Shown here one piece after another: positions 39,666 to 41,779 of a stretch of DNA of 64,000 nt. Numbering within the stretch: position 1 is the stretch's first letter; every line of letters starts with the position of its first letter. Both the position numbers and the translations under genes were made by a program. The stretch spans positions 1,310-65,309 of the forward strand of contig JABDHI010000003.1 of the NCBI GenBank assembly GCA_013285655.1. The letters are read 5' to 3'. The notes below the pieces were generated by a model. That model was not told where the DNA came from, ran no database searches, and saw nothing but the letters and a program-made list of their open reading frames with translations. This DNA is from Bacteroidota bacterium. Its GTDB lineage: Bacteria; Bacteroidota; Bacteroidia; JABEUT01.

Positions 39666-40832
39666 ATGAAACGACTACTAATATTACTGATACAAATAAG
39701 CCCTGCAGCTTTTGCCCAGCAACCCGAGAAGATATATTCGATTGCTGTGCAGCCCCACGAAACGGCCTATTATACCACCCAGGCGGAGTTATGGGAGAAA
39801 GAAACGGACAAACACCCAAAGGATGCTGCTGCATGGGAAAATTACTATTTGGCAATGCGGTACAGTAACCAGGCATATAACATGGGTAATGAAGACAAGC
39901 AAAAGCTAATGGGCAAGATAGTCGATCAAATAGCCAAGAATGCTCCAGGCACTATAGAGTATTACCGGTGTAAGTTGAGTTACGATGGTTGGCCCAATAA
40001 AGATACTACAGGCAGGTTAGTAATGCTGAAAAAGGCACTGGCTATGGCTCCTAATGATAGGGCAGTACTGGAAGATTACATGATATATTGCGAAACAACA
40101 GGCCGCATCGATAAACTGAATGAGTTAAGTACGGCACTTTATAAGAGTAATAATTTCCCTTTAGGACTAATGGAATTTGGGTATAACGTATTAATGTCGG
40201 CTGATAGAAATGCTATTGTGTTTACCTGTGGCGATAACGACACCTTCCCGGAATGGATGCTACAGGAAACAAAAGGTATCCGCACCGATCTGGCTGTTAT
40301 AAATATTCCGCTTTGTATCAACTTTCCCGGCTACCTGAAACGGATGCTTAAGCAGAAGAACATTGTGCTGTCAGATGATTTTTGGAACAGGGAGAAGGAT
40401 TTGAAGGATATGAACCAACTAACCAAGATGATTGTGTTAGAGATCAATAAAACCAACCCTGAGGTGCCTGTGTTCTTTGCCATAACCTGCGACTTGCAAA
40501 ATGTTTTCCCTGATAGCCTTTACTGCACAGGCCTTGCCTGGTACTTCAGCACAACGCGTATTGATAACATGGCCAAGATGAAGAACAATGTGGAGAATCA
40601 TTTTCACTTAGATTATTTGAACGGAGGCTTGTACGATGATAACAGTATTACCAAAGATATTGTAGAAGACTGCAACACGCTTTATGTAACTCCATTTGCA
40701 TTGCTCTACAAGCATTACAAAGCCATGCGGGAGGATAGTGATAGGGTTACGTTCTATAAAGATTATGTGATGAGATATGCCACCAAAATGGGGAAGGAGC
40801 AGCAAATGAAAGAGTATTTGGAAGCCAAGTAA
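39666..40832 (+). CDS. secreted hypothetical protein that shares a conserved motif with the C-terminal (periplasmic) region of the DUF2723 protein at 50167..53346
   Basis: Signal peptide. [31 protein letters not shown] aligns with [31 protein letters not shown] of the 1059-aa DUF2723 protein. Confidence 0.55.
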   Translation: [388 protein letters not shown]

Positions 40833-40837
40833 TACGA

Positions 40838-41416
40838 ATGAGCAAATATTCCATAATGACCGACAAGGAGCTAATGCTTTACCTTAAGCAGGGTGAGGTA
40901 TTGGCTTTTGATGAGCTTTATCTCCGCTACAGTAAAAGGCTATTGGGGTATTTTATCCGCATGATGAATTATGACAGAGAAAAAGCCCAGGACCTTCTGC
41001 ACGATGTGTTTTTGAAGGTGATTGAAAAGCCGGAGTTATTTGACAGAACACGATCATTTAAAACATGGATATATACTATTGCTTATAATACCTGCAAGAA
41101 CCAATATAAACATGCCGGTGTTGTAAAGGAGGCTCACGCGGAATTGAAAAGCACCGAAGCTGTATTGGATGAACGGTTTTTTATAACTGCTGCTGCTAAA
41201 ATGGATGCAGTAGAATTTAAAAAGGCTTTGCATACTGAGCTTGAATTATTGGCCGAAGACAAGAAGACCACTTTTATTTTACGTTACCAGGAAGATAACT
41301 CCATTGCCGAAATAGCGGAGATAATGGAATGTTCGGAAGGGACAGTAAAATCGAGGATACATTATACCTTAAAAATACTAGCAGATAGATTGAAAATTTA
41401 CAACCCATTAAATTAA
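40838..41416 (+). CDS. ECF-type RNA polymerase sigma-70 factor
   Basis: Region-2 motifs LLHDVFLKVIEK and FKTWIYTIAYNTCKN. A region-4 helix-turn-helix (IAEIAEIMECSEGTVKSRIH) is present. 192 aa. Confidence 0.8.
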   Translation: MSKYSIMTDKELMLYLKQGEVLAFDELYLRYSKRLLGYFIRMMNYDREKAQDLLHDVFLKVIEKPELFDRTRSFKTWIYTIAYNTCKNQYKHAGVVKEAHAELKSTEAVLDERFFITAAAKMDAVEFKKALHTELELLAEDKKTTFILRYQEDNSIAEIAEIMECSEGTVKSRIHYTLKILADRLKIYNPLN

Positions 41417-41422
41417 TACGTT

Positions 41423-41779
41423 ATGGATACACCTAAGAATGAAATGGATGACTTATTGAGCAATGCAATGCAGTTTACCGAGGGCGAAATACCCGAACCT
41501 GATAAGGCCAGGTACAATAAACTCAGAAAAAAGGTAGGCGCACGCAAACCTAAAACAAACCCTTTAGCAAGACTATTCAATTTAGAAATAAAGCTTTACC
41601 AGGCTGCTTTGGCAGTTACCGCAGTAGCTATAATATGCCTGGTGTTTCGTCCGGCTATTATTCCGCAGGGGACGGAGAACATGGGTATGCCCGGTTCAGA
41701 TACTGCCACAGCTTATAAGGGTTCTAGTTTAAAGAGTGATAGCTTCCTTGTGAAGAATTTTACTTCCGCTATTTATTAA
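41423..41779 (+). CDS. putative anti-sigma factor (single TM)
   Basis: It lies immediately downstream of the ECF sigma gene. One TM segment (LYQAALAVTAVAIICLVF) follows a basic N-terminal region. Confidence 0.5.
   Translation: MDTPKNEMDDLLSNAMQFTEGEIPEPDKARYNKLRKKVGARKPKTNPLARLFNLEIKLYQAALAVTAVAIICLVFRPAIIPQGTENMGMPGSDTATAYKGSSLKSDSFLVKNFTSAIY

Follow-up and report, generated by a model that had tools for sequence, protein, structure and literature searches.

We report that a gene for a secreted protein of 388 residues, in a stretch of 64,000 nucleotides (nt) from a Bacteroidota bacterium, encodes a stand-alone copy of the C-terminal lobe of a DUF2723 glycosyltransferase from the same stretch. 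The stretch, hereafter the window, covers positions 1,310 to 65,309 of contig JABDHI010000003.1 (GenBank assembly GCA_013285655.1). The gene is followed by the genes of an extracytoplasmic function (ECF) sigma factor and of a single-pass membrane protein, Table 1. This three-gene operon is conserved across the Fibrobacterota-Chlorobiota-Bacteroidota (FCB) group of phyla, and its promoter motif is found at two places in the window, upstream of the operon and upstream of the DUF2723 gene. On balance, we favour a model in which the stand-alone protein (the free protein) is a Sec-exported copy of the acceptor-binding lobe of DUF2723/TMEM260-type enzymes that, as the product of the first gene of an ECF operon, acts as a peptide-binding co-sensor and controls the sigma factor driving the parent enzyme.

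Homology between the free protein and the DUF2723 protein

The two proteins have the block FT.GDNDTFP.W..QE..GIRTD in common. It was noticed in a first-pass annotation of the window, whose open reading frames (ORFs), coordinates and peptide blocks are all present in the sequence; the 31 residues quoted there are residues 186-216 of the free protein and 672-702 of the DUF2723 protein. A degenerate DNA pattern, back-translated from GDNDTFP, matches nowhere in the window but at these two sites, where 0 matches are expected. BLASTP aligns the proteins in one significant high-scoring segment pair of 41 residues (25/41 identities, 61%, E 6e-12), and a second, weak segment pair preserves the order.

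To compare the families as profiles, 31 homologues of the free protein were found by a word-index search and aligned, and the homologue collection for the C-terminal lobe of DUF2723 numbered more than 5,800 matches. HHalign in local mode gives a probability of 99.2% (E 1e-19, 60 columns), and across settings the probability lies between 99.2 and 99.7%. In permissive or global mode three colinear blocks are aligned. The first pairs residues 167-227 of the free protein with 653-712 of DUF2723, the second pairs 268-298 (PVFFAIT...GLAWYFS) with 843-875 (PICFAVT...GLIYRLV), and the third pairs an 11-residue helix of the free protein with DNVMHKFHWGN. Between the first two blocks DUF2723 has an insertion of about 120-130 residues.

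The first-pass annotation had pointed out that its proposal would fail if the similarity were limited to the short stretch, with unrelated folds on either side. We find that it extends further, because the remainders of the proteins still match when block 1 is deleted from both profiles. Using a multi-phylum alignment of 70 sequences for the free family, residues 255-371 align with DUF2723 830-952 (97.0%, E 1.1e-10, 111-123 columns), against an E-value of 0.23 for the reversed-profile control. A short convergent or chance motif in unrelated folds could account for the single 41-residue BLASTP segment, the 60 columns of the default local HHalign run and the lack of a significant structural neighbour by Foldseek, but it is ruled out for practical purposes by the block-deletion match, which keeps the order, by the same Pfam family being called on both proteins and by the two pattern sites where none are expected. 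According to the alignments, the homology covers about residues 160-371 of the free protein (~210 residues), i.e. the alpha/beta domain in full, together with the first helices that follow. The N-terminal region (33-177), which resembles tetratricopeptide repeats (TPR), is without a counterpart at that position in DUF2723 and is specific to the free family.

Domain identity and the active-site loop

According to precomputed annotations, the Pfam family PF28495 (TMEM260_2, a Rossmann-like domain that comes second in TMEM260-like proteins) matches each of the 31 free-protein homologues as well as C-terminal fragments of DUF2723. Among these homologues it is named on P0013, P0014 and P0026, and P0001 is 87% identical to the window protein. 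The window protein was assigned to the family through its near-identical homologues and the HHalign match to DUF2723; in our Pfam/NCBIfam scans, where the Pfam set was without the PF28495 model, neither the free protein nor the 118-residue product of the third gene has a match. The free protein does not match PF11028 and has no multi-pass transmembrane module, only an N-terminal signal peptide, and it is therefore not an enzyme of the glycosyltransferase C (GT-C) type. With PF28495 on both proteins, the domain occurs both fused to a GT-C membrane module and free, as the first-pass annotation had suggested.

In a PDB sequence search the DUF2723 protein matches human TMEM260 (9rql/9rqm/9rqn) along two separate stretches (E 7e-8). 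One comprises the membrane module, and in the other DUF2723 596-714 aligns with TMEM260 364-479. TMEM260 consists of a GT-C transmembrane "wrist" that binds dolichyl phosphate mannose, a Rossmann-like "palm" (416-564) on a five-stranded sheet, and TPR "fingers" (565-706). A groove running from the fingers along the palm holds an extended acceptor peptide, which is touched by R439, G440 and P443, while D441 acts as the catalytic base, and the D441A variant has no activity (bioRxiv 10.64898/2026.03.17.711096).

Counted through the alignments, R439-G440-D441 of TMEM260 corresponds to N674-G675-D676 of DUF2723 and to C188-G189-D190 of the free protein, and R206 and D208 of the free protein align with R457 and D459. 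The block that had been proposed as a functional site at first sight is in fact aligned with the TMEM260 loop R439-G440-D441-P443, which contains the catalytic base and the acceptor contacts. The free-family profile reaches TMEM260 directly in the same register, with marginal E-values of 0.01 and 0.039 over 63-77 columns, and because of these E-values the link from the free protein to TMEM260 is transitive through DUF2723.

AlphaFold2 models of the free protein are confident, with a predicted local distance difference test score of 89.7 when the full length is modelled and of 89.5 with residues 160-388. The full model contains nine helices in residues 33-177, five strands (184-187, 210-213, 269-272, 285-287, 291-294) flanked by helices, and five C-terminal helices. 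This model fits a palm plus helical fingers, with an extra TPR-like arm at the N-terminus. By homology, we expect the free protein to have a groove for an extended peptide, as in TMEM260.

Catalytic state of the enzyme and of the free copy

The DUF2723 protein keeps D44 and H59, which correspond to D52 and H67 in the sugar-recognition motif of TMEM260, as well as the palm loop G675-D676. With D44 and H59 retained, it is plausibly an active enzyme. Among 104 fused DUF2723 homologues the palm loop is essentially invariant, and D676 is present in 104/104.

The free family differs at this point. In 70 non-redundant free proteins, with a divergence comparable to that of the fused set, G189 is conserved in 90% and D190 in 80%, and several separate lineages have E, A, S, T, H or N at the aspartate position. 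The scaffold around it (Y173, N174, L176, M177, S178, N182, R206 and D208) is conserved in 100% of the same proteins. This pattern fits a protein with a retained binding site and a relaxed catalytic constraint. Lacking the membrane module, the free protein has no site for a lipid-linked donor and thus cannot glycosylate alone.

Conservation of the three-gene operon

A scan of 185,579 species genomes yielded 67 stand-alone homologues and 13 fused DUF2723 genes. The stand-alone homologues are full-length with 25-63% identity. They are found in Bacteroidia, Chitinophagales/Saprospiraceae, Cytophagales/Cyclobacteriaceae and Flavobacteriales, and further in Ignavibacteria, Kapaibacteria, Chlorobiota, Calditrichia, KSB1 and Zixibacteria. 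An exhaustive profile search places at least 482 clusters at 50% identity in the free family (E <= 1e-30). The best 150 of these matches all align from their own N-terminus and fall into length classes of ~370-410, 480-500 and 635-665 residues.

The context was analysed for 63 stand-alone loci that are non-redundant and have 800 nt or more of downstream sequence. A homologous ECF sigma factor (E 1e-30 to 1e-95) is encoded on the same strand within 3 kb downstream in 58 of them. In 52 the distance is no more than 150 nt, and the median gap is 9 nt. The neighbourhood of sigma and anti-sigma genes, described at first for the window only, is therefore the defining conserved context of the free family. 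In the window the sigma gene starts 5 nt past the stop codon of the free gene, and the third gene begins 6 nt after the sigma gene. The sigma factor scores 93.8 bits against the NCBIfam model TIGR02937 (sigma70-ECF, cutoff 42.9). Regions 2 and 4 are matched in the Pfam/NCBIfam scan and no region 3 was found, which is the layout expected of an ECF sigma factor.

On three long contigs the trio of free protein, ECF sigma factor and ~119-residue protein has entirely different flanks. No DUF2723 gene lies within 6 kb in any of the 63 stand-alone loci, and no sigma gene adjoins DUF2723 in any of the 13 fused loci. A consistent fourth operon gene was rejected, as the genes inserted between the free gene and the sigma gene are heterogeneous. 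Some stand-alone homologues (L050, L055 with 763 residues, L054, L065 and L069; L numbers denote loci) have no adjacent sigma gene and are perhaps paralogues that have diverged towards a different role. FG-GAP repeats form the N-terminal region of L050 and L055, and L069 has two free-type genes in tandem.

The probable anti-sigma factor and its C-terminal tail

According to transmembrane predictions across the loci, the third gene always encodes a single-pass membrane protein. In other phyla this protein has 150-350 residues with the transmembrane helix near residue 100, and 11 of the 41 long forms contain the HxxxCxxC motif of zinc anti-sigma factors. One long form (L013) comes close to the zf-HC2 cutoff (E 3e-4, 21.1 bits, cutoff 22.2). 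The 118-residue protein of the window matches the long forms with an HHalign probability of 97.9% (E 6e-13), and judged by this relationship it is probably an anti-sigma factor that binds the sigma factor.

At the extreme C-terminus of these proteins we found the consensus G-[RK]-[ST]-[LVF]-x-[ED]-D-[ST]-x-L-x-x-F, which in the window reads GSSLKSDSFLVKNFTSAIY. It emerges when the tails of some 50 loci in several phyla are aligned, both at their right ends and by MAFFT. The periplasmic linker before the motif is very variable in both length and composition. We propose that the tail is a docking ligand, for which a short conserved peptide on a flexible tether would be expected.

The promoter motif and the putative regulon

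Enumeration of bipartite motifs finds TGAAC...TGTA upstream of the first gene in 47 out of 57 non-redundant loci, compared with a maximum of 22 in shuffled sequences. The sites are located 13-118 nt upstream of the start and have a spacer of 16 nt in 46 of 47 cases. Such a promoter, with a GAAC-like -35 element and a fixed spacer, is typical of the ECF type, and its position before the operon implies that the trio would be autoregulated. Scans for sigma-70 promoters and terminators between 39.3 and 43.2 kb gave nothing above shuffles.

The exact pattern TGAAC-N16-TGTA has two matches on both strands of the 64-kb window, where 0.59 are expected. One is the operon promoter, with a position weight matrix (PWM) score of 26.9. 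The other scores 16.2 and lies, correctly oriented, in the 166-nt intergenic region directly upstream of DUF2723.

We fetched 36 loci of DUF2723 orthologues from metagenomes. The motif is present in all 16 loci that have at least 67% identity and enough upstream sequence, with the end of the PWM window 91-150 nt before the start codon (91-96 nt in 13/16). These 16 sites do not vary in the -35 and -10 elements but differ freely in the spacers, i.e. they form a phylogenetic footprint at the DUF2723 promoter. The short fragments L117, L119 and L120 are without the motif. No other match was found in 329 kb of DUF2723 orthologue loci.

The trio loci, 907 kb in all, contain 54 sites with a score of at least 15, and 49 of these were flagged as the promoter of the operon itself. 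Of the remaining five, those in L024 and L026 look like promoters of the operon that were misplaced because the ORFs were called too long, and three are genuine exceptions. In L003 a site scoring 27.8 lies 19 nt upstream of the gene of a 663-residue PMT_2+TPR protein of GT-C type beside the trio, and in L071 a weak site precedes a TonB-like protein. A second ECF promoter (score 20.7) is located directly after the anti-sigma gene of L046, at 8280-8311(+). It precedes the gene of a 298-residue secreted protein whose tail resembles, by eye, a type IX secretion system (T9SS) sorting domain, a candidate regulon member in a Bacteroidales metagenome-assembled genome.

The first-pass annotation had asked whether the sigma regulon includes the module at 45.7-53.3 kb. 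By the promoter match, the answer is positive for the DUF2723 gene. The GT2 gene (Glycos_transf_2) and the DUF2079 gene were dropped as regulon members, as there is no promoter match near either in the window.

Another sigma gene was observed beside some distant DUF2723 orthologues that lack the motif. In L100, L104, L105, L107 and L112 an ECF sigma gene starts about 105-190 nt upstream of DUF2723 on the opposite strand, followed by an RskA-like anti-sigma gene and an MsrA-like gene (by eye, from motifs); L103 has a different cassette. This arrangement could be synteny by coincidence, or it could independently connect an ECF sigma factor to DUF2723 a second time. As the cassette is not that of the trio, we did not count it as support.

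A proposed mechanism and its alternatives

In the mechanism that we favour, the free lobe would act in the periplasm as a non-catalytic, peptide-binding co-sensor, with its groove holding the conserved C-terminal tail of the anti-sigma factor as a pseudo-acceptor. A build-up of unmodified acceptor peptides, or a change in the modification state of the tail, would release the tail. The anti-sigma factor would then be inactivated and the sigma factor freed. The freed sigma factor would raise transcription of DUF2723 and of the operon, and this would close a feedback loop on the capacity for envelope protein glycosylation.

A broader version of this mechanism is more tentative, and we regard it as possible but doubtful. 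It states that FCB bacteria monitor their capacity for O-glycosylation of envelope proteins through a catalytically idle copy of the acceptor site. The tail would be a tethered pseudo-substrate, or a real substrate of DUF2723 that is read by its modification state, and unglycosylated client proteins would compete with it, release the sigma factor and raise the level of the enzyme.

The main rival is that the free protein is a working accessory of glycosylation, either a soluble chaperone that recruits substrates or a palm acting in trans, which passes extended acceptor peptides on to DUF2723 or another GT-C enzyme. It would be a co-regulated output of the operon, and the anti-sigma factor would sense something else. 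The retained loop agrees with this, with the catalytic-base aspartate in 80% of the proteins and R206 and D208 invariant, and so does the promoter type in common with DUF2723 and with the PMT_2+TPR protein of L003; ECF operons also often carry output genes. However, DUF2723 already has an invariant palm of its own, the aspartate of the free protein has been lost repeatedly, and among 70 loci only L003 has a GT-C gene within 6 kb of the free gene. The tight coupling of the free and sigma genes across phyla, with otherwise unrelated flanks, is moreover the pattern expected for regulatory partners. We consider an accessory role with simple co-regulation rather improbable.

A third explanation, which we judge unlikely, is that the free protein is an exported surface or extracellular effector that binds foreign or environmental peptides or glycans. 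It would be the main output of the regulon, with no role in sensing or glycosylation. Some relatives do carry a T9SS C-terminal sorting domain (Por_Secre_tail), identified by Pfam in L023 and L043 and by sequence and length in L026 and L035. These relatives come from Ignavibacteria, Kapaibacteria and Chlorobiota, and the tails on the Ignavibacteria and Kapaibacteria members speak for an effector. So do the fusions to FGE-sulfatase and FG-GAP domains, and the second promoter of L046 before a protein with an apparent T9SS tail. On the other hand, most members, including the window protein, have a Sec signal peptide only, and an effector would leave both the conserved C-terminal motif of the anti-sigma factor and the promoter before DUF2723 unexplained.

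The same observations bear on the location of the free copy, described as periplasmic in the first-pass annotation. The N-terminus of the window protein is signal-peptide-like and without a lipobox cysteine (ORF inspection), and for this protein and most members the description can be kept. It does not extend to the relatives with a T9SS export domain, as passage across the outer membrane is implied by the tail and is difficult to combine with a purely periplasmic role.

Other long forms were also observed, and in the longer length classes of the family either a T9SS sorting domain or an FGE-sulfatase domain is present. Those of 480-580 residues in L027, L028, L034 and L041 were put with the T9SS-tailed group by length only. 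Fusions of the free protein occur in Saprospiraceae and Cyclobacteriaceae with a domain resembling the formylglycine-generating enzyme (FGE-sulfatase), identified by Pfam for L025 and by sequence for L051. Further forms of 640-665 residues with a C-terminal extension are found in L032, L038-L040, L048, L057 and L061. In L039 (2066-2941) and L048 (7913-8734) a separate FGE-sulfatase-like gene, recognised by sequence motifs, lies between the free gene and the sigma gene. FGE-like domains are also found in the T9SS components GldJ, GldK and PorK.

Several observations weigh against the co-sensor mechanism. The catalytic aspartate and its loop are still kept in most free proteins, which leaves room for a catalytic or accessory role. 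Foldseek against the PDB returns only weak TPR or generic alpha/beta matches, which do not confirm the fold. The T9SS-tailed and FGE-sulfatase relatives fit poorly, as a protein exported beyond the periplasm could hardly be the steady-state partner of an anti-sigma factor in the inner membrane. The anti-sigma factors of the window's clade are without the first ~45 residues, which carry the zinc motif elsewhere, and for this reason the binding of the sigma factor by the window protein is something that we infer. The promoter link to DUF2723 is confined to the same clade: orthologues with at most 62% identity have no PWM match, apart from weak core matches kept in L096 and L098. That the promoters are driven by this sigma factor, rather than by a related ECF factor of the same genome, is itself a deduction, and so are the binding of the tail, the nature of the signal and the direction of regulation. 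Finally, D190 and the Ser/Thr of the tail show a weak trend to covary (21/36 vs 3/13), which is confounded by phylogeny and was not used.

Features of the window

The coordinates of the operon, of the DUF2723 gene and of their neighbours are listed in Table 1.

Table 1. Features of the window (positions from the first nucleotide of the 64,000-nt stretch; aa, amino acids).
Feature	Position	Strand	Evidence or description
ECF-type operon promoter	39611-39635	+	TGAACCTTTTTAACCCACCGTTGTA; -35 TGAAC, 16-nt spacer, -10 TGTA, 31 nt before ATG
Stand-alone TMEM260_2-domain (free) protein	39666-40832	+	388-aa ORF; signal peptide aa 1-17, TPR-like helical repeats aa 33-177, Rossmann-like palm aa 184-300, five C-terminal helices aa 301-386
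Shared block in the free protein, active-site loop of the palm (aa 176-216)	40191-40313	+	BLASTP and alignment to 9rql
ECF sigma factor	40838-41416	+	192 aa; Pfam Sigma70_r2 and Sigma70_r4_2
Probable single-pass anti-sigma factor, shortened form	41423-41779	+	118 aa; transmembrane helix predicted at ~aa 61-79, periplasmic tail of ~40 aa
Conserved anti-sigma C-terminal motif, proposed docking peptide	41720-41776	+	GSSLKSDSFLVKNFTSAIY
Second copy of the ECF promoter	53444-53468	-	TGAACCTAAAGCCAAAACAGTTGTA; ~98 nt upstream of the DUF2723 start codon
DUF2723/TMEM260-like GT-C glycosyltransferase	50167-53346	-	1059 aa; Pfam PF11028, E 7e-53
Shared block in DUF2723 (aa 662-702)	51241-51363	-	Degenerate DNA pattern, BLASTP, alignment of fused homologues
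Fatty-acid desaturase	41914-43014	+	PF00487
DUF255/thioredoxin-domain protein	36433-38475	+	680 aa
Protein with an N-terminal hydrophobic segment	38472-39422	+	316 aa; without a Pfam match
Long ORF, probably spurious	43030-43326	-	Over the tRNA-Asp/GIY-YIG region
tRNA-Asp(GTC)	43090-43164	+	
GIY-YIG domain ORF	43194-43475	+	93 aa
DUF58/VWA protein	44234-45154	-	
Thioredoxin-like protein	45186-45503	-	CGPC motif
GT2 and DUF2079-type genes	45761-49990		GT2 gene at 45761-46492 (Glycos_transf_2)
ORF beside the DUF2079 gene	46495-46953	-	152 aa
Beta-propeller-like protein	53513-54712	+	399 aa; match to the Rax2 C-terminal propeller, repeated YNGxLYAGG units

The desaturase gene does follow the anti-sigma gene, as in the first-pass annotation. 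As a member of the module it was rejected, since it is missing from all three long-contig neighbourhoods. The DUF255/thioredoxin-domain gene is an ordinary neighbour, and neither this gene nor the DUF58/VWA and thioredoxin-like genes are conserved with the module. The 316-residue protein is encoded directly upstream of the operon promoter and was not seen beside the trio in the other loci examined. The GIY-YIG ORF follows at once after the tRNA gene.

The GT2 and DUF2079-type genes are syntenic with DUF2723 in the relatives L089, L090, L092, L093, L115 and L116. In these relatives a single ORF of about 470 residues matches both the 152-residue ORF of the window and part of the 982-residue DUF2079 protein, which suggests a rearrangement or fusion in the window genome. 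The DUF2079 protein also has a weak N-terminal match to the cell-surface glycopolymer formation family NF046093. The beta-propeller-like gene is divergent from DUF2723 across a common intergenic region, in which the promoter match faces DUF2723 and not the beta-propeller-like gene. Its synteny is kept in the closest orthologue loci (L085-L088).

Significance

The human homologue TMEM260 is a disease-linked protein O-mannosyltransferase, and bacterial DUF2723 proteins are abundant. The TMEM260_2 domain is already known in Pfam, and the structure and catalytic role have been described for the human enzyme. What is new here is an ECF sigma/anti-sigma system with an enzyme-derived accessory component. 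We know of no described case of a GT-C acceptor lobe acting as an ECF co-sensor, and none was found in the literature searched. The same literature describes neither the three-gene module, its link to DUF2723 nor ECF control of O-glycosylation, and contains no account of the function of bacterial DUF2723, with one passing mention. No group with this context is described in the main text of the ECF classification (PMC7826278).

Read conservatively, the results provide an annotation for several phyla, a three-gene ECF module of at least 482 clusters with a TMEM260_2 protein as the first gene and DUF2723 in its regulon. The locus offers a regulatory handle on DUF2723, with a defined promoter motif, a dedicated ECF sigma factor and a candidate sensor; by homology, the TMEM260-peptide complex shows where this sensor would bind its ligand. 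Should the proposed mechanism be true, the free protein would represent a new class of ECF co-sensors, an enzyme-derived reader of pseudo-acceptors, and glycosylation homeostasis would be a regulated function of the envelope. In the broader version it would be the first described bacterial feedback sensor for protein glycosylation and would give a first functional handle on bacterial DUF2723.

Comparison with known systems

The closest relatives by homology are human TMEM260 (9RQL/9RQM/9RQN) and bacterial DUF2723. The free protein has the same homologous palm, helical repeats after it and the GD...R.D loop. In contrast to these enzymes, it lacks the GT-C wrist and the donor site and has an N-terminal TPR-like region in their place. 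Its loop aspartate is present in 80% of the proteins instead of 100%, and its gene belongs to a sigma/anti-sigma operon, whereas the fused loci have no adjacent sigma gene.

In Bacteroidota, the PorA/PorXY-SigP system of Porphyromonas gingivalis is a precedent for input to ECF sigma signalling from an exported protein that carries a T9SS C-terminal domain, and it is relevant for the T9SS-tailed relatives of the free protein. Its proteins and pathway are different, as PorA works through a two-component system together with SigP, and no TMEM260_2 domain is involved (PMC7712824).

Pseudoenzymes and substrate-mimic sensors are a further, general parallel, as in the proposed mechanism a paralogue of the substrate-binding site of an enzyme would be put to use to read how much substrate that enzyme has.

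RseB, which acts on RseA in the sigma-E system, and CnrX, which acts on CnrY in the CnrH system, are periplasmic accessory sensors that bind an anti-sigma factor. We consider these pairs the nearest functional analogues of the module. They have the same three-part layout of a soluble exported protein, an ECF sigma factor and a single-pass anti-sigma factor, and the genes are co-transcribed and, by motif evidence, autoregulated. Also here the accessory protein is proposed to gate the inactivation of the anti-sigma factor. The likeness is functional only, as the Pfam/NCBIfam scans of the module gave no match to RseB or CnrX. Unlike in these systems, the accessory gene comes first in the operon, and the periplasmic part of the anti-sigma factor is a variable linker with a short conserved peptide instead of a folded domain. 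The accessory protein, furthermore, appears to derive from the active-site lobe of the very enzyme whose gene lies in the putative regulon.

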